Shown here in pieces: positions 12,480 through 27,044 of a stretch of 32,000 nucleotides of DNA (the first letter of the stretch is position 1; each line of letters starts with the position of its first letter). The DNA is taken from positions 900,001 to 932,000 of the forward strand of contig NZ_DS995298.1 of assembly GCF_000155895.1 (NCBI RefSeq). The letters are read 5' to 3'. The notes under the pieces are model-generated. The model had not been told where the DNA came from, did no database searches, and saw only the letters and a program-made list of their open reading frames with translations. A program made the translations under genes and the position numbers. The stretch is from Candidatus Pelagibacter sp. HTCC7211 (GTDB lineage: Bacteria > Pseudomonadota > Alphaproteobacteria > Pelagibacterales > Pelagibacteraceae).

Positions 12480-12485
12480 TTTTAC

Positions 12486-12600
12486 TCCTTTTTTAGTGCT
12501 TTAACTTTATGTTAGGCGCACAATACAGTTCAAATGCCTACCGATTATGTTTTGAAAGTTCCTTTTTAGCAGTTTTACGCCCGCAATAGGATCAAATCGG
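12486..12600 (-). promoter_or_regulatory. Probable tandem SAM-II-like / SAM-V-like riboswitch aptamers in the metY leader
   Basis: The minus-strand RNA carries two related elements. Aptamer 1 (12600..12561) reads CCGAUUUGAUCCUAUUGCGGGCGUAAAACUGCUAAAAAGG. Aptamer 2 (12527..12486) reads UGUAUUGUGCGCCUAACAUAAAGUUAAAGCACUAAAAAAGGAG, and its 3' end is the metY Shine-Dalgarno. Both share UAUUG(C/U)G..GC...GC(U/AC)UAAAAA(A)GG. This resembles my recollection of the SAM-II/SAM-V pseudoknot consensus, and SAM-V was defined on Pelagibacter metY leaders. Confidence 0.7.
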
Positions 12601-17076: not shown

Positions 17077-17931
17077 ATGAAAGCCATTATTTTTAGTTTA
17101 CTTGGATGGATGTTTTTACCTGTCATGGATGGTTTTGCTAAATTTTTGAGTGATGATCTTCCAATATTACAAATAACTTGGGCAAGATATTTTTTTACGG
17201 TTTTTTTTACACTTCCAATAATGATATTTTTTTTTAAAAAACAACTAGTGTGGTCCGACAAACCTAAATTACAAATATTAAGAGGTATAATATTGCTATC
17301 AGCTAATATTTGTTTTTTTTATGCAATATCTATAATTTCTTTGGCGAAAGCATTAACTTTAGCTTTTGTAGCACCTTTAATTGTAACTACATTTTCACCT
17401 GTTATGCTAGGAGAGAAAGTGGGTTTTAGAAGATGGACAGCAGTGGTAGTTGGTTTTACTGGTTCTTTAGTAGTGATTAGACCTGGTTTTGTTGAGTTAA
17501 ATTTTGCTAGTTTAGCAGCATTAGGAACTGGCATTCTTTATGGATTTTATTTAATAATAACTCGAAAATTAAGTACTTCAGATAATCCACTTTTAACGCT
17601 TTTAATGACTGGAATGGTAGGGGCCATACTTGTTTCAGCAATTATTCCCTTTTATTGGGTAAAACCATCACTAAATCAATGGTCTTTAATGGCTGGTATA
17701 GGCGTTTTCGCGTGCATAGGGCATTTATTTTTGATATTATCCCTCAAATATGCTGATGCCTCTAAATTAGCTCCTTTAGGCTATACAGAGATAATACCAA
17801 ATGTATTAATAGGCTATTATTTTTTTAGTGAGTTCCCTGATAAATGGACATATGTAGGTTTATTAATCATCATTTTAAGTGGTTTATATATATTTAGACG
17901 AGAATATATACTTACTAGGTCTAAATATTAG
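17077..17931 (+). CDS. EamA/DMT family transporter
   Basis: 284-aa 10-TM protein with duplicated EamA-like halves (RWTAVVVGFTGSLVVIRPG linker). Confidence 0.8.
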   Translation: MKAIIFSLLGWMFLPVMDGFAKFLSDDLPILQITWARYFFTVFFTLPIMIFFFKKQLVWSDKPKLQILRGIILLSANICFFYAISIISLAKALTLAFVAPLIVTTFSPVMLGEKVGFRRWTAVVVGFTGSLVVIRPGFVELNFASLAALGTGILYGFYLIITRKLSTSDNPLLTLLMTGMVGAILVSAIIPFYWVKPSLNQWSLMAGIGVFACIGHLFLILSLKYADASKLAPLGYTEIIPNVLIGYYFFSEFPDKWTYVGLLIIILSGLYIFRREYILTRSKY

Positions 17932-17954
17932 TAATTAAATATTTACTATTATCT

Positions 17955-17998
17955 AATCTATTACATTAATATTATATTATAAACTATTGTAATTATTA
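17955..17998 (+). repeat. Copy 1 of a 44-bp imperfect direct repeat
   Basis: aatctattacattaatattatattataaactattgtaattatta matches 19161-19204 at 35 of 44 positions in an ungapped hand alignment. Confidence 0.5.
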
Positions 17999-18472
17999 TA
18001 ATATCTTAATAAAAAATTTAATAATAATTTAGGATAAGTTTAATAAAATACTTAATATTTTTAAAAAATAATAAGATAATTTGGATACTAATCAGAGAAA
18101 AAAGGCAAATAAGACAAGTATAAAAATACAGAATTAACAGTAAGCTTTTAAAATGTTTAATAGCAATGGTTTTTTAAGGTTTGAATTTTCATTATTTGAA
18201 TAAATATAAAAATAGGTGAGTAGGGTTGAAGAAATTCATTTAAAATTGATAAGATTTTGCACATTAAATTAACCTTGGTATCATTGCAAACTAGAGCAAT
18301 GCAGTTATAGAATATATGTTTTAATCGGCCATAGAGGTGCTTTATTTTGCTATATCTCGATATATAGTACAACTAAAGGGTGCATAGCACTATTTATGCT
18401 AAAATATACTTAAAAATTGAAAAATTGTTGATTATGCTAGTTTTTTGACGATAAAATAGGCTTAAAATACCT

Positions 18473-18748
18473 CTAAATATTAACTTTTTCAGATCTCAAT
18501 AATCGCAGCTTTGTCTTAATTCCCCCTCTACCTGAGTATCCACCAAGACCTCCATCGGACCGAATTACTCTATGGCAAGGTATTTTCGGGGCATATGGGT
18601 TTTTTCCGATAGCATTAGCTACTGCTCTATGAGCTTTTGGCTTTCCAATAGCTTTTGCCACTTGCAGGTAAGTTCTAATTTCTCCTTTTGGTATTTTTTT
18701 TAGGTAATTCCAAACTTTTATCTGAAATTTAGTCCCTTTTAAGTTCAT
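18473..18748 (-). CDS. Methylated-DNA-protein-cysteine methyltransferase, C-terminal-domain-only (mini-MGMT)
   Basis: FQIKVWNYLKKIPKGEIRTYLQVA...HRAVANAIGKNP..PKIPCHRVIRSDGGLGGY contains the PCHRV active-site cysteine. Start ATG 18748 (MNLKGTKFQ) is preferred over the track's 18805, which would overlap GNAT by 77 nt. Confidence 0.8.
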   Translation of the reverse strand: MNLKGTKFQIKVWNYLKKIPKGEIRTYLQVAKAIGKPKAHRAVANAIGKNPYAPKIPCHRVIRSDGGLGGYSGRGGIKTKLRLLRSEKVNI

Positions 18749-19166
18749 ATAATTCAAATCCTGTATTGTTAGCAATCTTATCATATAATGTTTTTGCTGT
18801 CTCATTGGAAGAGTGGGTTATCCAACGAATTCCTTCCCAATTATTTTTTTTAGACAAAGACTCCAGGTATTTTATAAGCTTTTGAGCTATTTTTTGTCCT
18901 CTAAAATTTTCATCTACGAATAAATCATCTAAAAAACCAATATATTTACCTTTAATTGGTCTTGGCATTGTTCTGTAGTGAGCTATTCCAACGATTTTAT
19001 CTTCTATTTCGTAGCATATTCCATTAACAACATGAATTTCATCGTGTATCCAGCTCCATAAAGTATCTAAAATCTCTTGTTTCATAGGAACTTTATAAAA
19101 TCTAGCATACCCACAATATAATTTTATCCAATTTTCCTTAACTTTTCTTTTAATTTTTCTAATCAT
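18729..19166 (-). CDS. GNAT family N-acetyltransferase
   Basis: Acetyl-CoA motif A (LFVDENFRGQKIAQKLIKYL) and typical GNAT length. Confidence 0.8.
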   Translation of the reverse strand: MIRKIKRKVKENWIKLYCGYARFYKVPMKQEILDTLWSWIHDEIHVVNGICYEIEDKIVGIAHYRTMPRPIKGKYIGFLDDLFVDENFRGQKIAQKLIKYLESLSKKNNWEGIRWITHSSNETAKTLYDKIANNTGFELYELKRD

Positions 19167-19204
19167 TTACATTAATAGTATTAAATAAAACATTGTAATT
19201 GTTA
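19161..19204 (+). repeat. Copy 2 of the 44-bp imperfect direct repeat; fills the DUF2938-GNAT spacer
   Basis: aatcatttacattaatagtattaaataaaacattgtaattgtta. It contains the 13-bp palindrome ttaataGtattaa (19172-19184). Confidence 0.5.
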
Positions 19205-19209
19205 ATTTA

Positions 19210-19686
19210 TTAAATAGTAAACCATCTAAAACCTTCATACATCGCTACACCATATATCGAATGCCTAATAAGAAAAATAATAGAAGTTTCAATTGGTTTA
19301 TCAGTATTTTTTGCAAAAATACCTTGCCCTGTAAAAGGTAAAAATACTAAAAGTGGAGCTAAAGTTGTTATTGCTCCAAAAATAAGCCCTGAAAAATAAG
19401 ACATTTTAATTCCAACATTAATGAAGATAATATAGTAAATAACTGCCCAAGATATTGATATAAAGTAATGAAAAACCCATCCAAGCAATACTTCATATTT
19501 AAATTCAGGTTTTTCAATAATTGTTGGGTTAAAAAAAGCACCATTTTTTATCATATAAAAGGTCCATCTACCTACAATGCCCCAAGAGGGTTCTGGAATA
19601 CCTATTTTTTTTAATAAATAACCCAAAATATCTAAAATGATGCAAGAAAATATGCCTGCAACGAAAATACTCAAAAAATCAATCAA
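19210..19686 (-). CDS. DUF2938-family integral membrane protein
   Basis: Four to five TM segments. GRW..Y...G.F and HY.IS..WA.IY motifs are recalled from DUF2938. The start codon is TTG at 19686, with no in-frame ATG nearby. Confidence 0.65.
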   Translation of the reverse strand: MIDFLSIFVAGIFSCIILDILGYLLKKIGIPEPSWGIVGRWTFYMIKNGAFFNPTIIEKPEFKYEVLLGWVFHYFISISWAVIYYIIFINVGIKMSYFSGLIFGAITTLAPLLVFLPFTGQGIFAKNTDKPIETSIIFLIRHSIYGVAMYEGFRWFTI

Positions 19687-19693
19687 TATTAAC

Positions 19694-19864
19694 TCAATAA
19701 AAATTTAAAATAATAAAGCAAACTATAAAGAAAACAGCTAAAATAGACAAATAAATCGTTTCTAGAGTTTTTCCAGTTTTTTTATACTGAATAAAGCTTA
19801 ATATTACAAAACCAATTGAAGTTATTAAAAAATATATTGGTTCAATTACACCGTCAATGCCCAT
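19694..19864 (-). CDS. Possible small two-TM membrane protein (56 aa), not in ORF track
   Basis: Manual translation gives MGIDGVIEPIYFLITSIGFVILSFIQYKKTGKTLETIYLSILAVFFIVCFIILNFY*. There are two hydrophobic helices with a KKTGK loop. The stop lies 7 nt before the DUF2938 TTG start. Confidence 0.35.
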   Translation of the reverse strand: MGIDGVIEPIYFLITSIGFVILSFIQYKKTGKTLETIYLSILAVFFIVCFIILNFY

Positions 19865-19900
19865 TTTTTAATCTTATTTCATCCATGTTTTGTTCTCAAT

Positions 19901-19917
19901 ATCATTAATTGTCATCA
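19901..19917 (+). repeat. Partial direct copy of the recombinase palindrome core
   Basis: atcattaattgtcatca versus ataattaattgttatca (19972-19988) matches at 15 of 17 positions. A third at(g)attaatt lies at 19921-19930. Confidence 0.45.
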
Positions 19918-19937
19918 TAAATGATTAATTATTTTAT

Positions 19938-19966
19938 TTGACATTAGAAAACTCCTGATATATTAC
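19938..19966 (+). promoter_or_regulatory. Candidate promoter of the recombinase gene
   Basis: Perfect -35 TTGACA (19938-19943), N17, TATTAC (19961-19966). The -10 element is the first 6 nt of the palindrome. Confidence 0.35.
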
Positions 19967-19997
19967 TAATGATAATTAATTGTTATCAATAGTAATA
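19961..19997. repeat. 15-7-15 inverted repeat (lox/FRT-like architecture) directly upstream of the recombinase ATG
   Basis: tattactaatgataa / ttaattg / ttatcaatagtaata. The arms are reverse complements at 14 of 15 positions. The repeat ends 2 nt before ATG 20000. Confidence 0.6.
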
Positions 19998-19999
19998 AT

Positions 20000-20953
20000 A
20001 TGAACGAACTAACAACAGACTTAAAATTACTTCATGAGGCAACTTTAAATAACCTTAAAAGCTCAAAAGCAAATAACACTTTGAGAGCTTACAAATCAGA
20101 TTTTAAAGATTTTGGAGCTTTTTGCTCAAAACACGGTTTAAATTCGTTACCATCAGAACCTAAAATAGTAGCTTTATACCTCACACATCTTTCTAAAAAT
20201 TCAAAAATAAGCACTCTAAGAAGAAGGTTGGTATCAATAAGCATGGTTCATAAGTTAAAAGGATTTTATTTAGATACAAAACACCCTATCATTGTTGAGA
20301 ATTTAATGGGAATAAAAAGGGTTAAAGGAAGCATTCAAAAAGGAAAAAAACCTCTATTAATTAATCATTTAAAATCAATTATTAATGTAATAGATGAACA
20401 AAAAATAGAAGATATAAAGAAAGCAAGAGATAAGACAATCATCTTAATAGGCTTTGGAGGTGGTTTTAGACGAACTGAACTTATTTCAATTGACCATGAT
20501 GATTTAGAATTTGTTCCTGAAGGTCTTAAAATAACTATCAGAAGATCAAAAACTGATCAATTCGGTGAGGGGATGATTAAAGGACTACCCTACTTCACTA
20601 ATGAAAAATATTGTCCAGTAGTTAATCTAAAAAAATGGTTAGAAATTTCTAAGATTAGCTCAGGACCAATTTTTAGAAGGTTTAGCAAAGGTTCATCTTT
20701 AACAGATAAAAGATTAACAGACCAATCTGTAGTATTATTGATGAAAGAATATCTAAATTTATCAGGCATAGAAAATAAAAATTTTGCTGGTCATAGCTTG
20801 CGATCAGGTTTTGCAACTGTTGCAGCAGAGTCAGGAGCAGATGAAAGAAGTATAATGGCTATGACAGGTCATAAAACAACACAAATGGTTAGAAGATATA
20901 TAAGAGAAGCCAATATCTTTAAAAATAATGCATTAAATAAAATTAAAATTTAA
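20000..20953 (+). CDS. Tyrosine site-specific recombinase/integrase, Cre-like architecture
   Basis: Catalytic signature GGFRRTEL (Arg I), GHSLRSGFAT (His-x-x-Arg) and GHKTTQMVRRYIR (His, Tyr nucleophile). The N-terminal domain TLRAYKSDFKDFGAFCSKHGLNSLPSEPKIVALYLTHLS parallels Cre (TWKMLLSVCRSWAAWC...FPAEPEDVRDYLLYLQ), recalled from memory. Confidence 0.9.
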   Translation: MNELTTDLKLLHEATLNNLKSSKANNTLRAYKSDFKDFGAFCSKHGLNSLPSEPKIVALYLTHLSKNSKISTLRRRLVSISMVHKLKGFYLDTKHPIIVENLMGIKRVKGSIQKGKKPLLINHLKSIINVIDEQKIEDIKKARDKTIILIGFGGGFRRTELISIDHDDLEFVPEGLKITIRRSKTDQFGEGMIKGLPYFTNEKYCPVVNLKKWLEISKISSGPIFRRFSKGSSLTDKRLTDQSVVLLMKEYLNLSGIENKNFAGHSLRSGFATVAAESGADERSIMAMTGHKTTQMVRRYIREANIFKNNALNKIKI

Positions 20954-20957
20954 AATA

Positions 20958-21860
20958 TTATATGTTCCAAATTTTATAAACTACTTTGTATAACATCGTA
21001 ATGTATAAAATAATTGAAATTAATCTCAAAAAATTCTTGTATGACTTCTTTGGCCTGAAGATTATAAAATTAATTATAATACGTTGAAAATAATCTATAA
21101 AATTTTTGATTATACGAAAAATTAAAGAACTAACATTATTATTTTTTTTAAAATAAATATAAGAAGATATTTTATGTATAATTGATAATTTGGAGTTTGT
21201 AAAAAATTTTTTTTTTGAAGAAGCATTTTCTAAATGAATAAATTTTGATGAAGGAACTTCCATAATGTATTTTCCTTTTTTTAAAGTACGATCGCATAAA
21301 TCATTATCTTCGAAGTACATAAAAAAGTTTTTATCAAAACCTCCTAATGAATTAAAAAAATCTCTATGCATAAGATAGCAACAACCCATTAAAAATTTAC
21401 AACAAGTATTATAAGATGGAATATTATTAGATATATTTGAAACTTTAACACCATTTAATTGATCTAAATATGAAATTGTCCCGTTAGTACGTCTGTGCAT
21501 TTTTTGATCATATAATGATGGCCCCAAAATTCCTATATTTTCAGGATCATTTAAAAAATTTTTAAATAGATCATTAATAGAATCTTCATTTATTAAAATA
21601 TCAGGATTTACAATTAAAATAAAAGGTGTTGTAGCTCTAGAAATAGCTAAATTGTTTGCAGCTCCATATCCTAAATTTATAGAGGATCTTATAAAATCTA
21701 TATTTTTATAATTAAAAATAATTTTTTCTAATTCTTTAGAATTAGAATTATCAACTATTATTGTAGGAAATTTTTTTAATATTTCTATATTTTTTTGAAT
21801 AAGCTTTTCACTTCTGTATGTTACAATTATTAATGTAATATCTTCATAAATACTTGTCAT
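20958..21860 (-). CDS. Family 2 glycosyltransferase with C-terminal hydrophobic tail
   Basis: ITLIIVTYRSEK...VDNSN...GYGAANN...LIVNPD (GT-A DxD-type core) and FFMYFEDNDLC. The C-terminus has a TM-like segment. Confidence 0.85.
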   Translation of the reverse strand: MTSIYEDITLIIVTYRSEKLIQKNIEILKKFPTIIVDNSNSKELEKIIFNYKNIDFIRSSINLGYGAANNLAISRATTPFILIVNPDILINEDSINDLFKNFLNDPENIGILGPSLYDQKMHRRTNGTISYLDQLNGVKVSNISNNIPSYNTCCKFLMGCCYLMHRDFFNSLGGFDKNFFMYFEDNDLCDRTLKKGKYIMEVPSSKFIHLENASSKKKFFTNSKLSIIHKISSYIYFKKNNNVSSLIFRIIKNFIDYFQRIIINFIIFRPKKSYKNFLRLISIILYITMLYKVVYKIWNI

Positions 21861-21868
21861 AATTTAAA

Positions 21869-22843
21869 TTATAATTGTTTTAAAAGATTAGAAGCTACTG
21901 TTTTCCATTTTTTAGAACCTCTTAAATTTAGTAAATTATTTCGTATTTCATTCCATAAATTATAGTTATTAAAAATATTTAATGTAAAATCAGCAAATTC
22001 ATCACTATTTTTTGCTATAAATCCAGTAATACCATGCTCAACACGCTCTGAAAGTGATCCAATACCCAATGTTATGATTGGTATACATAGTTCTCTTGCT
22101 TCTTCAGCTGCTATGCAAAATAATTCGCCTTTATGACCAGGCACCAATAACACTTTAGATTTAAGCATATCTTTAAGCAATGAAATCTTATTATCAAAAT
22201 TTCTAGAGTATATATTAAAATTATTTTCGATTAAATCACTTGGTGTAACAAAAAGTTTTATAGATTTGTTTTTTGGAAATATCTTTTTTTTCCAAATATC
22301 AATTAATATATCTAAATTTCTATCTCTCCTCGAGGTAAATATAGCTCTATTTTCTACATTAGAATCATCAATTTCTGCTTCTAAAAATAATGGGTCAACC
22401 GCCCATTGGAGATTAATTTTTCCAAATAATTTTAAAAGGAAATTTCTATTATCATCATGATATTTTCCCAAAATAATAACTTTAGGTTTATACTTTAAGA
22501 AACTTAATAATTGACCTTTACGAATAAATTTTTCAATAGATTGAATACTGTGTGAAAAAGCAATATAATTTTTTGCTGAGATTTTATTAAAAAGCCTAAT
22601 ATCATTATTTGTGAATGCATAATCAAAAACATTTTCTTTATTAGTATTATTAATATTAGTCCACTTTACATTATCAAAAGTTTGACTTTCTGAATTATTA
22701 TTAAAAACTTCAACATTATTATTAAGTTTTGCAAGTTCTTTTGATAAATGGATTATTACATTTTCACCACCTCTAATATCTTTTGAATTCAAATCATTTG
22801 GTGTGTATGGAATAGGTGAATTATCCAAGAAACAAATTTTCAT
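21869..22843 (-). CDS. GT-B fold glycosyltransferase (GT1/GT4-like)
   Basis: C-terminal Glycos_transf_1-like motif (LLVPGHKGELFCIAAEEARELCIPIITLGIGSLSERVEHGITGF). Confidence 0.75.
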   Translation of the reverse strand: MKICFLDNSPIPYTPNDLNSKDIRGGENVIIHLSKELAKLNNNVEVFNNNSESQTFDNVKWTNINNTNKENVFDYAFTNNDIRLFNKISAKNYIAFSHSIQSIEKFIRKGQLLSFLKYKPKVIILGKYHDDNRNFLLKLFGKINLQWAVDPLFLEAEIDDSNVENRAIFTSRRDRNLDILIDIWKKKIFPKNKSIKLFVTPSDLIENNFNIYSRNFDNKISLLKDMLKSKVLLVPGHKGELFCIAAEEARELCIPIITLGIGSLSERVEHGITGFIAKNSDEFADFTLNIFNNYNLWNEIRNNLLNLRGSKKWKTVASNLLKQL

Positions 22844-24969
22844 TAAAACAAATTAGGTTTTTTTCCGAAAGATATATCGATTATATATTTTGAAATTTTA
22901 TTTCCATTAAAAAGTTTAAAATATTTTGCTTTACCATTTTTTGCTATTTTTTTTCTTAACTTATCATTTTTACTATAAAAATTAATTTTAGAAGCTAGAT
23001 CATCAATATTATTGTAAAATATTACCTCCCTCTCATCATCAAAAAAAACATCCAGTTGTGTTTTTTTATCTATAAATGTAAGTAGTCCATTACCTAGTAA
23101 TGATGCTATTCTATTACTTGAATAATATTTAGTTGGTGTTCCCCTGCTTAAATTTAATCCCATTTTTGAATTAATTAAAGCTCTATTAAAACTATTACCC
23201 CAAATAGGCTGTCTGTTTTTAAATCCATGAAAATCATAATTTATATCTGGAATTTTTTTTATAAGTTTATCCAAAAAATTAATTCTATTATCCTCAAACC
23301 CTTTTTTTAAAATACCTCTATTAACTCCATGACTCATAGCGTAAAATATATCTTTTTTTGGGTTTAACTTATAAACATCAAAACACTCAATATTTTTATC
23401 TACTGGCACAAAGAAAAAATTAAATTTCTGATTTTTAAATTTATTTTTTAAAATTGATGGGTGTGTAGTTATAAAATTATGATCAACTACAGAAACATAT
23501 GGCTTAATATTTTTAATATTTTTGGTAGAGAATTCAAGTCCAGGCATAAGAGGATCCTCATTCCATTGAGATATTATCAAACTTTTATTAATTGATCTCA
23601 TGTAATCAAATGTTTCTAAATTTATATTATTTGTGTGTCCAAATAAAAATAAATCAGGATTATAATTTTTAACTACCTCTATCAAATGTTTTTGAAATGA
23701 ATCTAAGTTAGTTCTAAAATTTAATAGACTACGATTATTCTTTATATAATCACGATCACTAATTTCTAAAACATCATGATTATTTCTAATGAAGCCATTT
23801 GTAAATTTTTTTCCTAGCGAGATATTAAATAATCTATAATTATTTTTTTGACCTTGATTAAATAAATTTATTATTCTTAATCTGTTCTTAATAAAATTTA
23901 ATTGAAATTTTGAAAAAATGTTACTCCTTATTAAATCAATTTTTTTTGTATTTTTATCAATTAAATGAATAACATTGTTCCTAGATAAATTTTGAATTTT
24001 TTTTCTTTTAATTTTATTATTTATTAGATCTTTAATATTCATATAAAGTTTTTCAGAATTAATATTATCAATAGGAACTATGTAATTTGATGTTTCTAAC
24101 AACCCACCTCTATTTGATGTAACAGTTGCGCATCCTGATGCAGTAGCTTCTAATGAAACACGACCAAATGGTTCTTCCCATCTTGAAGGGACAATAGCAA
24201 TTTCAGATTTATCTAATATATCTAATGTTTTTTGGTGATTTAAAAAACCATATTCTTTATGTTTTTTATGTTTGATATAAATACTCCTTCTACTTTCATC
24301 ACCTAAAGATAATGCACGCCAATCTGGATATTCATTAAGAATTCTAATAATTGCATCTTTGTATATATCATATCCTTTAGAATGATTTAGTTTTCCTACA
24401 AAAACAATCTGATTTGTTTTAATTTTTTTTTTTCGTTTATTTGTGCTGTGATAAATTATCTCTGTTTTATCTTCTTGGGTGCTATCTAAACCTTTAAAAA
24501 ATCTTTTTTTGACCCATTTGCTTATGAAAACTAATTTCTCAACTTTTTTTAAAATTTCAACTCTTTCTGAAATTGATTTTGATCCAGACATAGTTAATGG
24601 ATCGTTATGATAATACATAATAAATTTAGCATTTATTCTTTTTAAAAGTTGAAATAATATCAATGGTCTATTATGTATTTCAACTATATCAAATTTTTCT
24701 TTAATAATATTTTTGGATATTTTTTCTACATATTCGTATGATGTACTTCTAAATTTTGATTTAAGATTTTTAAGGGGTATATTTATATAATTCTTAGATA
24801 AATAATTTTTAGAGTTTGAATTTCCATAAATAAAATTTTTATTTTTAAATTTTGACTTATTAAAAAATTGTGAAACCCAAAGAGATACAGCTGAAGCATT
24901 CTCTAAAGTGTAGCTTTCTTTATATGGTAAAATAGTTGCTATTTTAATATCGTTTTTTTTTACTATCAT
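22843..24969 (-). CDS. Two-domain glycosyltransferase: N-terminal GT4 domain plus C-terminal CgeB/Glyco_trans_1_2-like domain
   Basis: Residues around 180-300 read FVGKLNHSKGYD...IVPSRWEEPFGRVSLEATASGCATV (E-x7-E). Residues around 540-700 read FYAMSHG..R...L.......GF......W......ALINSKMGLNLSR....YYSSNRIASLLGNGLLTF, resembling CgeB-type domains. Confidence 0.8.
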   Translation of the reverse strand: MIVKKNDIKIATILPYKESYTLENASAVSLWVSQFFNKSKFKNKNFIYGNSNSKNYLSKNYINIPLKNLKSKFRSTSYEYVEKISKNIIKEKFDIVEIHNRPLILFQLLKRINAKFIMYYHNDPLTMSGSKSISERVEILKKVEKLVFISKWVKKRFFKGLDSTQEDKTEIIYHSTNKRKKKIKTNQIVFVGKLNHSKGYDIYKDAIIRILNEYPDWRALSLGDESRRSIYIKHKKHKEYGFLNHQKTLDILDKSEIAIVPSRWEEPFGRVSLEATASGCATVTSNRGGLLETSNYIVPIDNINSEKLYMNIKDLINNKIKRKKIQNLSRNNVIHLIDKNTKKIDLIRSNIFSKFQLNFIKNRLRIINLFNQGQKNNYRLFNISLGKKFTNGFIRNNHDVLEISDRDYIKNNRSLLNFRTNLDSFQKHLIEVVKNYNPDLFLFGHTNNINLETFDYMRSINKSLIISQWNEDPLMPGLEFSTKNIKNIKPYVSVVDHNFITTHPSILKNKFKNQKFNFFFVPVDKNIECFDVYKLNPKKDIFYAMSHGVNRGILKKGFEDNRINFLDKLIKKIPDINYDFHGFKNRQPIWGNSFNRALINSKMGLNLSRGTPTKYYSSNRIASLLGNGLLTFIDKKTQLDVFFDDEREVIFYNNIDDLASKINFYSKNDKLRKKIAKNGKAKYFKLFNGNKISKYIIDISFGKKPNLF

Positions 24970-25207
24970 TCAATATTCTTAATCTCTCATTTCTATCTTT
25001 TTTTAATTTGTATTCAAACGAAAGAGCTTTATTCTTGGAATAAAATCTTTTTTTATAAATAATTTCCCATTTATAGCCTCTAGTCGATTTAGCACCTAAA
25101 TTGGAATTATGCTTATGAAGCCTTTTTTTAATATTATTTGTATACCCAACATATGATTTATCTAAAAAACCATCTAAGGTTTTTATTAAATATACATAGT
25201 AAACCAT
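24944..25207 (-). CDS. GIY-YIG nuclease superfamily protein (UPF0213/YhbQ-like)
   Basis: YYVYLIK...SYVGYTNNIKKRLHKHN...GAKSTRGYKWEIIY...ALSFEYKLKK. It overlaps the downstream GT start by 26 nt. Confidence 0.8.
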   Translation of the reverse strand: MVYYVYLIKTLDGFLDKSYVGYTNNIKKRLHKHNSNLGAKSTRGYKWEIIYKKRFYSKNKALSFEYKLKKDRNERLRILNDSKKKRY

Positions 25208-25224
25208 AATTAATTATGCTTATT

Positions 25225-25299
25225 TGGCGGTCCCTGGGGGAATCGAACCCCCCTTTGCAGGATGAAAACCAGCTGTCCTAACCGATAGACGAAGGGACC
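25225..25299 (-). tRNA. tRNA-Glu (anticodon UUC), CCA encoded
   Basis: The hand-folded cloverleaf has acceptor GGUCCCU/AGGGACC, D stem GUCU/GGAC, anticodon arm GCUGG-UUUUCAU-CCUGC and T arm GGGGG-UUCGAUU-CCCCC. It is closely similar to E. coli tRNA-Glu. Confidence 0.93.
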
Positions 25300-25340: not shown

Positions 25341-27044
25341 CTAATTAAGTTCAATAAAAAGATCTTTAATATTTAATTGTAAAACCTTATTATTATTCCA
25401 ATAATTTTGATGAATTTGAGCAATTACATGTACATTTTTTTTATATGTCAAAAGATATTTGCCAAGTTTTGTATTTAGTGAATTGAAGCATATAGATTTA
25501 ATAAATTTACCTACTTTAGGTTTAAAAATAACATTAATATGTTTTTCATTAAAAGTTTTTACTTTAGTTATTTTTAGATTTTTAATTAGAAAAGTAGGAA
25601 TAGGATTTCTGTTACCATAAGGTCCTATTTTATTAATTTCGTTAACAAAATCCATATTAATTGCATTAGGTGAAATTTCTGCTTCGTAGGTATTAACCAA
25701 ACTTGTTTTTTTATTTTTGAGCGCAAAATCTTTTAACATAAAATCTTCTAAATCTTTAAGCTTATTTTTTTTCATTGAAAAACCAGCTGCCATATTATGT
25801 CCACCTCCGTTTTGAATTAATTTTTTATCAACTAGTTTTTTGATTACGTTACCAATATTATAATTAATTGTTGATCTAGCTGATCCCTTTAGTATCTCTT
25901 GTGATGAAGTTATTACTATTGAAGGTTTATTAAAATAATCTTTTAGTCTTGAAGCGATAATACCAATAAGACCTTCTTTAATTGTAGGATTGTAATAAAT
26001 AATAACATCTTTATTTTCTTTTTCCAATTTAGCAAAATTAATTTCATTTAATATTTTTTGTTCAATATCTTTTCTAATATTATTAAGTCTTATTAATTCA
26101 TTCAATTTTGCTTTAACAAAATTAGGATTTTCAGAAATTAATAAATCAGCAGCAATACGTGAATCAGATATTCTACCACCTGAATTTATTATCGGACCAA
26201 TAAAAAATCCAAGATCTTCAATAGTAAGATTATTTCTTTTATTACATAATTCATATAAAGTTCTAAATACAACGTTATCTTTTATCTTAAAATCCTTGAT
26301 AATATTTAAACCAATATATCTGTTAATTTTTCTCAATGGCATCACATCACAAACTAAAGCTAATAAGACATAAATTAAATAATTTGTAATATCAAAAGAT
26401 GATTTAATCTTTTTAATAAAAATTTCTAAAAAGAAATAAGTTAGTGTTGTTGCGCAGTAATAGTCTTTAGATAGATTATTAATATTTTTTTTTGGATTTA
26501 TAATTACATTAGCTTTTGGATATGGTTTATCTATTTCATGATGATCGATTATTATTGATTTAATCTTCTTATCATTTAAATAAGCTATCGATTGATTCGC
26601 TGTTGATCCACAGTCTACCATTATTACTAGCTTAGGTTTTTTTAGTATCAATTTTTTAAACACTGAATTACTAGGACCATATCCGTCGCGCTCTCTATCA
26701 GGTATGTAAAAAAAATAAGGCTGTTTAATATAATCAAAAAATTTAGCTAATAAAGATGTTGCTGCTGATCCATCAACATCATAATCACCAAATATACATA
26801 TAAGTTCTTTATTATTAATACTTTTTTCTAAGAGTAAAGAGGCATTAATAAAATCTTTATCATTTTTGAATTCATTTCGGATTACAGAGGGATTTTCTAT
26901 ACTATAAATTTCTTTATAATTAAAATTTCTAGAAATAATCAATTTTGAAACGATTTCACTAAAATTAAAATCTTGTTTAATTTTTTCAATGGAATTTTTG
27001 CTAATTTTTTCTTCAATCCATTTTTTTCCTGAAACGGATATCAT
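25341..27044 (-). CDS. recJ: Single-stranded-DNA-specific exonuclease RecJ
   Basis: DHH/DHHA1 motifs: IFGDYDVDGSAATS, VDCGS, IIIDHH, GGGHNMAAG. Confidence 0.93.
   Translation of the reverse strand: MISVSGKKWIEEKISKNSIEKIKQDFNFSEIVSKLIISRNFNYKEIYSIENPSVIRNEFKNDKDFINASLLLEKSINNKELICIFGDYDVDGSAATSLLAKFFDYIKQPYFFYIPDRERDGYGPSNSVFKKLILKKPKLVIMVDCGSTANQSIAYLNDKKIKSIIIDHHEIDKPYPKANVIINPKKNINNLSKDYYCATTLTYFFLEIFIKKIKSSFDITNYLIYVLLALVCDVMPLRKINRYIGLNIIKDFKIKDNVVFRTLYELCNKRNNLTIEDLGFFIGPIINSGGRISDSRIAADLLISENPNFVKAKLNELIRLNNIRKDIEQKILNEINFAKLEKENKDVIIYYNPTIKEGLIGIIASRLKDYFNKPSIVITSSQEILKGSARSTINYNIGNVIKKLVDKKLIQNGGGHNMAAGFSMKKNKLKDLEDFMLKDFALKNKKTSLVNTYEAEISPNAINMDFVNEINKIGPYGNRNPIPTFLIKNLKITKVKTFNEKHINVIFKPKVGKFIKSICFNSLNTKLGKYLLTYKKNVHVIAQIHQNYWNNNKVLQLNIKDLFIELN

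Follow-up and report, generated by a model that had tools for sequence, protein, structure and literature searches.

Members of SAR11, the most abundant bacterial clade of the ocean, serve as the standard example of streamlined genomes that lack mobile elements. Why does a SAR11 chromosome carry a tyrosine recombinase gene (here called REC) amid glycosyltransferase genes and close to a tRNA gene? We address this question in a 32,000-nucleotide stretch of Candidatus Pelagibacter sp. HTCC7211 (contig NZ_DS995298.1, positions 900,001 to 932,000; referred to as the window), in which the block at positions 17932-25224 reaches from the EamA gene to tRNA-Glu(UUC). A reading made from the sequence alone had taken this block for an old, fixed island that entered at tRNA-Glu by means of the recombinase and brought in glycosyltransferase cargo. 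By comparing related loci, we show that the block has a fixed place in the SAR11 chromosome and consists of a conserved backbone and two small flexible slots. We also show that REC and a 37-bp site directly in front of it form two ancient allelic types, A and B, at one locus. The proposed island is ordinary and was partly misread, and the conserved recombinase/site pair is unexpected in SAR11.

About 95 related SAR11 loci, drawn from four sources and labelled L001 onwards, were compared with the window. They comprise one genome (L001), retrieved through RecJ, further contigs carrying identical or 90%-identical recombinases, 80 metagenome contigs, which can be chimeric, and two long contigs with the second recombinase allele. 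All open reading frames (ORFs) of these loci were clustered, and the gene arrangements were mapped from the clusters. Protein domains were assigned with Pfam and NCBIfam, and the tRNA was identified with ARAGORN and Rfam. A 50-kb composite was assembled from the window and two pieces of the same strain (L099, L103), whose overlaps are identical to the window.

The conserved backbone and its two flexible slots

The backbone consists of a mini-alkyltransferase gene (mini-MGMT), REC with its site, a 708-aa glycosyltransferase gene (GT708) and a small GIY-YIG gene, and tRNA-Glu comes next in most lineages. MGMT lies upstream of REC in 21 loci that reach that far. GT708, represented by 51 ORFs across the loci, is the right anchor of the main slot and is nearly always followed by GIY-YIG, which adjoins it in 25 loci. 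In 15 of the 23 loci scanned, tRNA-Glu follows GIY-YIG. Three loci (L089, L093 and L096) extend past GIY-YIG and carry an aldehyde dehydrogenase gene there, with no tRNA-Glu.

The main slot runs from the stop codon of REC to the 3' end of the GT708 operon, and in the window it is filled by a GT2 and a GT4 gene (20958-22843). Among 44 informative loci, it occurs in 24 arrangements, holds 0-7 genes and measures between -11 and 6108 bp. The cargo falls into clusters of GT2, GT11, FkbM-type methyltransferases, a DegT aminotransferase and a sugar C-methyltransferase, together with a weak pyruvyl-transferase-like match. These are functions of surface-glycan chemistry, as the expectation of glycan cargo had it. 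The GT2 gene is missing in L001, whose flanks are the closest relatives of those in the window, and outside contigs of the window strain its cassette family occurs in only three lineages (L049, L056, L092). The GT4 cluster has 21 members and is absent from many loci, including five in which REC directly abuts GT708. Identical cargo modules accompany both REC types.

The minor slot lies upstream of REC and contains GNAT, DUF2938 and a small ORF (18729-19864). GNAT is present in the window strain, L001, L085, L105 and L106, and absent from L012, L013, L031, L041-43, L053, L064, L073, L075, L079, L087, L088 and L095. The presence of DUF2938 largely parallels that of GNAT, apart from L080, which has DUF2938 only, and L085, which has GNAT only. 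Most lineages lack both genes, and in them MGMT abuts the small ORF, which is followed by REC. The type of the small ORF varies by lineage, and a 58-aa ORF is called at the equivalent position elsewhere.

The flexible DNA of the window thus amounts to two stretches of about 1.9 and about 1.1 kb, instead of the full 7.3 kb. The view of the block as flexible-genome cargo holds for GT2 with GT4 and for GNAT with DUF2938, which do vary, and fails for MGMT, REC, GT708 and GIY-YIG, which are conserved in nearly all loci. Breakpoints had been predicted at 17.9-18.5 and 25.2 kb. The actual transitions from conserved to variable DNA are found at about 19.94 kb (the -35 box in front of REC), 20.95 kb and 22.84 kb, and metagenome assemblies break around the locus. 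It is correct that the Cre-like tyrosine recombinase sits amid genuine presence/absence variation.

The slots share their position, their conserved flanks, their alternative but equivalent gene sets and their lack of mobile-element genes with glycan islands of the replacement type. Their contents would be exchanged through homologous recombination in the conserved flanks, like those of O-antigen-type replacement islands under phage selection. Three observations argue for homologous exchange: the recombinase site lies across the gene from the slot, neither a second site nor any att-like repeat is present, and the same cassettes are shared with both REC types. From this pattern, we conclude that turnover of the glycan slot probably proceeds by homologous recombination in the flanks.

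All genes that the sequence-only reading had listed are recovered by Pfam and NCBIfam (Table 1). The 541-nt gap is, as noted there, the only long non-coding stretch; the runner-up in the window has 207 nt. The MGMT domain spans 18473-18805, and gene callers give a protein of 91 aa (18473-18748). The longest MGMT ORF (110 aa) overlaps GNAT by 77 nt (18729-18805), and the gene probably starts at 18748. With an intact PCHR active-site motif, MGMT is predicted to be a catalytic mini-alkyltransferase rather than an alkyltransferase-like (ATL-type) protein.

Table 1. Features of the block and its borders, in window positions
Feature	Position	Strand	Evidence and remarks
EamA	17077-17931		Pfam/NCBIfam
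Non-coding gap, 541 nt, between convergent EamA and MGMT	17932-18472		orientation switch + to -
Conserved non-coding block, ~100 nt	18290-18385		TTGCA..GAATATAgcgTTTAAACGGCCATAGAGGGG..AGTACAACTGAAGGGTGAA
Mini O6-alkylguanine-DNA alkyltransferase (MGMT), C-terminal domain only	18473-18748	-	PF01035, 4.8e-32
GNAT acetyltransferase	18729-19166	-	PF00583; accessory, upstream slot
DUF2938 membrane protein	19210-19686	-	PF11158, 4.9e-27; accessory, upstream slot
Hydrophobic small ORF, 56 aa, divergent from the recombinase	19694-19864	-	gene caller
Promoter-like element	19938-19966	+	TTGACA 19938-19943; TGaTATATT / TATTAC 19956-19966
Putative 37-bp core-type recombination site	19961-19997		15-7-15 inverted repeat
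Tyrosine recombinase REC, type A, 317 aa	20000-20953	+	PF00589 + PF02899
GT2 glycosyltransferase	20958-21860	-	PF00535; variable cassette
GT4-type glycosyltransferase, 324 aa	21869-22843	-	PF00534; common, non-universal cassette
Two-domain glycosyltransferase GT708 (GT4 + Glyco_trans_1_2), 708 aa	22843-24969	-	Pfam
Small GIY-YIG protein	24944-25207	-	PF01541, 5.7e-15; first gene of the leftward glycosyltransferase operon
tRNA-Glu(UUC)	25225-25299	-	ARAGORN, Rfam; 3' end toward the block

On the other hand, the distinctive A/T richness ascribed to the block does not stand out. Its GC content is 0.246 against 0.276 outside, while that of recJ is 0.232 and many core genes lie at 0.19-0.25. Among windows of equal size in the 50-kb composite, the block takes the 14th percentile in GC and the 83rd in tetranucleotide distance. 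A housekeeping stretch at 31.7-41 kb of the composite deviates more in composition than the block does.

Should the block still be regarded as an element that entered at tRNA-Glu? A tyrosine recombinase, a tRNA and flexible glycan genes do lie within 5 kb of one another, distant members of the REC family occur in mobile or defence contexts, several metagenome contigs end exactly at tRNA-Glu, and the block is slightly AT-rich. This composition, however, stays within the local range. An integrated element would show as presence or absence of the whole, with an empty site; what we find is REC, GT708 and GIY-YIG in nearly all loci that reach them, most of these loci having been retrieved through REC. 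The 25-nt 3' end of tRNA-Glu is single in the window at up to 3 mismatches, confirming the lack of a duplicated 3' fragment, and no direct repeat of this end is found among the direct-repeat families of the window. There is no second recombinase site either. The recombinase lies 4.3 kb from the tRNA, and since GIY-YIG and GT708 next to the tRNA are conserved, the flexible slot is 2.4 kb away from it. The block also occurs without tRNA-Glu (L089, L093, L096). Moreover, the recognition-type site is single-copy and lies 5' of REC, opposite the main variable slot. The recombinase outranks ribosomal proteins in amino-acid conservation at saturated synonymous sites and is apparently syntenic in strain HTCC1062. 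With no tRNA repeat, conserved tRNA-proximal genes, a fixed recombinase and ordinary composition, the model of a recombinase-driven element at the tRNA-Glu 3' end is largely refuted, and we regard it as highly improbable.

We notice further rearrangements around the block. In L068 and L069, whose REC is 85% identical, the upstream neighbourhood is unrelated and contains tRNA-Lys and ORFs of 368, 274, 211 and 123 aa. GT708 is followed there by a gene that in L043 lies upstream of EamA. Beyond tRNA-Glu, recJ (25341-27044) is located between the tRNA and glpX in the window, L001, L011, L105 and L106, and the L011 recJ is only 37% identical to that of the window. In five other lineages (L031, L043, L053, L073 and L079 were compared), recJ is absent there and glpX comes directly after the tRNA.

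The recombinase and its co-varying site

REC is composed of a SAM-like N domain and a catalytic domain, without an arm-binding domain, and the residues R157, H265, R268, H291 and Y300 are invariant. Two domains, a full catalytic set and an inverted-repeat core site place it among the Cre-like 'simple' tyrosine recombinases. At least 8000 candidate homologues passed the cut-off, and the best 120 of them are 87-93% identical. The wider family comprises 2684 clusters at E <= 1e-30, whose members typically show some 40% identity and a length near 320 aa. An AlphaFold model of REC from a shallow, SAR11-only alignment is poor (pLDDT 43).

REC is the most conserved protein of the locus. Compared with distant lineages, it shows 84-90% amino-acid identity, against 74-86% for rplM/rpsI and 79-80% for metY; the same comparisons give 65-68% for EamA, 62-67% for glpX and 41-59% for GT708. 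At identical residues, the same codon is used in 57-65% of cases in REC and in 38-66% in the flanks. Because this identity is equally saturated in REC and its flanks, the conservation of REC points to purifying selection and not to recent transfer. Recent horizontal transfer was ruled out on this ground, as synonymous identity is saturated at the level of the flanks.

In HTCC1062, hppA is SAR11_1040, metY is SAR11_1030 and a gene annotated as 'xerD integrase/recombinase' is SAR11_1019 (PMC5069961). In the window, ten gene steps separate hppA from metY, and eleven or twelve separate metY from REC. By gene counts rather than sequence comparison, REC appears to be syntenic with SAR11_1019 across Pelagibacter.

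The site in front of REC is an inverted repeat with 15-nt arms and an asymmetric 7-nt spacer, reading TATTACTAATGATAA / TTAATTG / TTATCAATAGTAATA in type A. It is intergenic, ends 2 nt before the REC start codon ATG, has a GC content of 13.5% and a complementarity of 93% between its arms. Across about 90 loci the site hardly varies, and it is single-copy in the window, in each related locus and in the 50-kb composite. No second site flanking an insert, full or partial, was found in any locus at up to 6 mismatches in 27 nt.

Among 49 unique upstream sequences, TTGAC and most columns of the site are at least 95% conserved, and the DNA 5' of the -35 box is less than 60% conserved and belongs to several unrelated families. 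The metagenome contigs have a median of 224 nt upstream of REC versus 2.4 kb downstream; 64 of the 80 have at most 700 nt upstream, and 30 have at most 110 nt. The assemblies break at the junction between the conserved module and the variable DNA upstream of REC. Judging from its conservation, the TTGACA/-10-like pair is a putative promoter that overlaps the left arm of the site. A generic promoter scan missed this pair, since the scan accepts only T as the sixth base of the second hexamer, and in this AT-rich region promoter-like matches occur at chance level.

The type-B recombinase has 305 aa and is 63% identical to type A. In L001, L105 and L106 it takes the place of type A at this locus, and the flanks of these three are the nearest relatives of those in the window. 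Type B is as abundant in metagenomes as type A, with at least 8000 significant homologues for each. Its site, TTTCCGATAA / TTAATGG / TTATCGGAAA, is identical in the three loci despite differing upstream DNA, and compared with the type-A site, five positions are changed symmetrically in both arms. In nucleotide identity, the REC of the window is 84% identical to distant type-A lineages and 68-70% identical to its nearest relatives, while the flanks rank in the opposite order. Given this incongruence between the phylogenies of REC and its flanks, the recombinase and its site behave as an exchangeable allele.

The core of the site recurs beside a distant homologue. The homologue P0245, 43% identical to REC and from an organism of 46% GC, has a repeat ACCGATAA / CAATCTA / TTATCG at 116 nt upstream of its start, sharing the core GATAA-N7-TTATC with the REC site. 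Upstream of distant homologues, the core was found for L107, and not for L111 or L113. In L107-L110 (P0245), the recombinase lies directly beside brxA/brxB and near a second, larger integrase. These contexts suggest that members of the REC family elsewhere serve defence-island or mobile-element functions.

The symmetric, allele-specific arms, the incongruent phylogeny and the recurring distant core tie the site to REC rather than to a general regulator. With co-variation as the evidence, it is quite probable that REC binds the 15-7-15 repeat, and in that way REC probably represses itself as well. Binding to a repeat that overlaps its own promoter would at once define a recombination site and provide autoregulation.

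The palindrome could instead be no more than a transcription-factor site that controls the REC gene, with REC acting elsewhere or being a relic. The repeat extends over the -10 region and the transcript start, and it carries GATAAT/ATTATC-type hexamers, which we take to be reminiscent of Fur boxes. The HTCC1062 orthologue is also up about 8-fold in stationary phase (PMC5069961). However, the arms change symmetrically with the recombinase allele, which the motif of a global regulator would not do, and the distant homologue keeps the core beside its gene in an unrelated organism of higher GC. Arms of 10-15 nt around an asymmetric 7-nt spacer are, moreover, the geometry of a tyrosine-recombinase core site. 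A pure operator is therefore quite unlikely.

If the repeat is a recombination site bound by REC, does it capture DNA? A resident recombinase might take up circular DNA with a matching site, as in an integron, so that types A and B would be compatibility groups. Such a landing pad would account for the conserved-to-variable transition on the 5' side falling exactly at the promoter and the site, for the conservation of the spacer TTAATTG across lineages, as if different genomes must recombine, and for the persistence of two co-varying recombinase/site types at one locus. It is at odds with the lack of a second site flanking any insert and with the position of the main variable slot at the 3' end of REC, away from the site. 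Insertion at the spacer would also part the gene from its -10 box. We found no attC-like repeats, and the integron-integrase model TIGR02249 gives 30.7 bits where 265 are required. Finally, a search for the 19-mer core of the site among 2.9 million viral contigs returned three IMG/VR contigs (L016-L018), which are AT-rich, giant-virus-like and unrelated to the locus. On balance, capture at the site is unlikely.

In these three viral contigs, the core is located at the start of a kinase-like ORF, near a packaging-ATPase-like gene and without a recombinase. We judged this occurrence a chance match in AT-rich DNA.

The tyrosine invertases of Bacteroides polysaccharide loci and pneumococcal CreX offer a different model, in which REC would be a DNA invertase that switches the expression or orientation of the adjacent glycan locus. 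REC is linked to the GT708 operon through rearrangements, the spacer is inverted in L070, a 43%-identical homologue lies beside BREX genes, and in L055 and L060 the REC segment is inverted relative to hom-asd-rpsI. Inversion, though, needs two inverted sites, and there is only one within at least 20 kb on either side. The L055/L060 junctions are tight gene-gene joints with no site-like sequence. The variants are seen once or twice in about 90 loci and are fixed lineage differences, not mixtures. Phase variation by REC is thus very unlikely.

In L055 and L060, hom, asd and rpsI are reversed downstream of REC and its cargo and joined to them by 7-18 nt. The reversal indicates that a REC segment of 6-7 kb, from about MemTr through the cargo and roughly symmetric around the site, was inverted.

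A candidate system for chromosome-dimer resolution

What would a host-resident recombinase with a single site do in SAR11? The clade is described as recombining very frequently. Circular chromosomes need Xer/dif after odd numbers of crossovers, and P. ubique, and with it SAR11, has been reported without a dif/Xer system (PMC2731167). We tentatively propose, at a little under even likelihood, that the REC/site pair is the chromosome-dimer resolution module of SAR11. In this mechanism, homologous recombination would make a chromosome dimer, two REC dimers would synapse the sister sites near the replication terminus, and strands would be exchanged across the 7-bp spacer, like in XerS/difSL, XerH/difH or Cre/loxP.

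The hallmarks of dif sites are an intergenic position, low GC, a palindromic sequence, a location near the skew peak and, in single-recombinase systems, a place beside the recombinase gene (Carnoy and Roten, PMC2731167). The REC site is palindromic, low in GC, intergenic and beside a recombinase gene; its central region has 7 nt, not 6. It shares the inner dyad ATAA-N-TTAT with the classical dif sites listed in PMC2731167. REC is conserved across the clade under purifying selection, and the absence of XerCD/dif is taken from the literature. In HTCC1062, the mRNAs of recA (SAR11_0641) and SAR11_1019 rise together in stationary phase (PMC5069961).

The local chromosomal setting may be that of a terminus. 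In the 50-kb composite, the genes left of the 541-nt gap number 32 on the plus and 4 on the minus strand, and those to its right 5 and 22 (Fisher p = 1.4e-8). The cumulative GC skew of the composite has its peak at 17.8-18.8 kb, and the site lies 1.5 kb away. Convergent gene direction and the order of the HTCC1062 locus tags are as expected of a terminus, not an origin. By locus-tag arithmetic, in which hypervariable region 2 (HVR2, SAR11_0523-0568) lies at 7-15%, SAR11_1019 would fall at about 43-47% of the chromosome from dnaA.

Several points weigh against dimer resolution by REC. The NCBIfam Xer models are far from reached (score against cut-off, in bits: XerD 68.8/329.6, XerC 59.3/335, XerA 67.9/220, XerS 41.1/267), and the matches of REC to XerA, XerD, Cre and XerH structures in the PDB are weak. 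XerS and XerH are phylogenetically unrelated to each other, and REC may serve an analogous function although it lies outside the Xer families. The wider family is named 'site-specific integrase' by its sources, and distant relatives lie beside BREX genes, beside a type I-C Cas gene or in phage-like DNA. The spacer measures 7 bp instead of 6, and its conservation between lineages is unusually high; dimer resolution alone does not call for this. REC stays tied to the GT708 operon through rearrangements (L055, L060, L068, L089/93/96), which may point to a functional connection with the glycan locus. The placement at the terminus rests on the strand polarity of 50 kb and on gene-number arithmetic; GC3 and AT3 skews of the composite, split by side and strand, gave no signal independent of the coding strand. 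The apparent universality of REC comes from a biased sample, as all metagenome loci were retrieved through REC, and the evidence independent of that search consists of L001, the HTCC1062 locus tags and one remark in the literature. A further point is contig L070 (MDTG01259100.1), where the spacer is flipped about 30 nt upstream of the ATG (GATAA-CAATTAA-TTATC) between normal arms. This flip, unique among about 90 loci, may have arisen from a hairpin loop or by recombination, or it may be an assembly artefact.

Weighing these points, we give an even chance to the reading as a whole, in which the locus is no integrated element and holds a host recombinase/site module, plausibly a dimer resolvase, beside a glycan replacement island driven by homologous recombination. 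A fuller version is possible, though we hold it with some doubt: SAR11, reported to have lost Xer/dif together with other 'non-vital' systems, would resolve its dimers by an Xer-unrelated, Cre-like recombinase and a 37-bp loxP-like site close to the terminus, with two ancient, mutually incompatible types kept as a trans-lineage polymorphism, perhaps hitch-hiking with the phage-selected glycan slot. If true, this would be the third independent single-recombinase solution after XerS and XerH. In the literature, we found no description of the SAR11 recombinase/site module, of its two specificity types or of a dimer-resolution candidate.

A recombinase more conserved than ribosomal proteins, a co-evolving site and a switch in strand polarity together make a testable candidate for a missing SAR11 function. 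Pangenome studies could take REC for the lone 'integrase' of a genomic island, a possible misreading. Whatever the function of REC, the locus adds to HVR2 a second, compact hotspot at which surface glycans diversify, and its sharply defined anchors make it a convenient metagenome marker for phage-driven glycotype turnover. The two specificity types of REC and its site could also be put to use in AT-rich hosts, as orthogonal tools for recombination.

The non-coding gap itself exists in the relatives checked. Within it, the conserved block at 18290-18385 is found in 12 further loci of divergent lineages, including the type-B locus L001, always between EamA and MGMT. It sits exactly where gene orientation converges and contains no conserved ORF. 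As for an RNA gene, the 541-nt gap gave no Rfam match at the gathering threshold, and permissive settings brought up nothing credible. RNAalifold found no consensus for 18290-18385 on either strand, and single-sequence folds were no better than shuffles.

Meanwhile, we notice a 50-nt direct repeat (17949-17998 and 19155-19204, 80% identical), of which an estimated 5e-4 such pairs are expected by chance. Its copies bracket the gap, MGMT and GNAT; the first is conserved just after EamA in other lineages, and the second lies at the GNAT/DUF2938 junction. Both contain TATTAC...GTAAT, resembling the outer arms of the site. Elsewhere in the window, a SAM-V riboswitch (12482-12548, 83.9 bits) is located upstream of metY, as described for Pelagibacter. 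It confirms the taxon, and the sources of homologous proteins likewise give the name Candidatus Pelagibacter.

Comparison with known systems

The glycan slot resembles the SAR11 HVR2/O-chain cluster and the small genomic islands (GIs) of gMED SAR11 (PMC11796062), which likewise combine a fixed position, differing glycan gene sets and low GC with a lack of canonical mobile elements. Unlike HVR2-type islands, it is very small (0-6.1 kb), with a recombinase gene as one border and the 3' end of a conserved glycosyltransferase operon as the other. The slot is not among the four hypervariable regions of Wilhelm et al. 2007. A SAR11 pangenome paper ties a single integrase to 'GI-35', which may be this locus.

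Like tRNA-targeting islands and tycheposons, the locus brings a tyrosine recombinase, a tRNA and niche-type cargo close together in a streamlined marine bacterium. In contrast to tycheposons, it has no partial tRNA repeat, and REC is not tRNA-proximal and is fixed under strong purifying selection. With integrons, it has in common a resident recombinase, a site immediately 5' of its gene and adjacent variable genes. It differs in that the variable genes are on the 3' side of REC, attC-like repeats are lacking and the IntI model is not matched. Nor did Wilhelm et al. find attC sites at the SAR11 hypervariable regions.

The XerS/difSL system of streptococci and lactococci and the XerH/difH system of Helicobacter and Campylobacter also consist of one recombinase and an adjacent AT-rich palindromic site. 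The distance from difH to xerH is 16-282 bp in many species (PMC2731167 Table 2), and that from the REC site to its gene is 2 bp. Within the DNA covered here, the site is single-copy and lies near a cumulative GC-skew peak, in a clade reported without XerC/XerD. REC, however, has no family-level homology to either recombinase (XerS 41.1 bits against 267; PDB XerH E = 2e-3), and the arms of its site are longer (15 nt) and nearly perfectly symmetric, around a spacer of 7 nt instead of 6. To our knowledge, neither XerS nor XerH has been described with two specificity types side by side.

In layout, REC comes close to Cre of phage P1, with the same two domains and no arm-binding domain, and it aligns with Cre over residues 26-304. 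Cre/loxP combines inverted repeats of 13-15 nt with an asymmetric spacer of 7-8 nt and a site next to the gene, and it resolves replicon dimers. The similarity of REC to Cre is weak (E ~2e-4), and the fifth catalytic position holds His (H291) instead of Trp. Whereas Cre is phage-borne, REC is chromosomal, host-resident and clade-wide.

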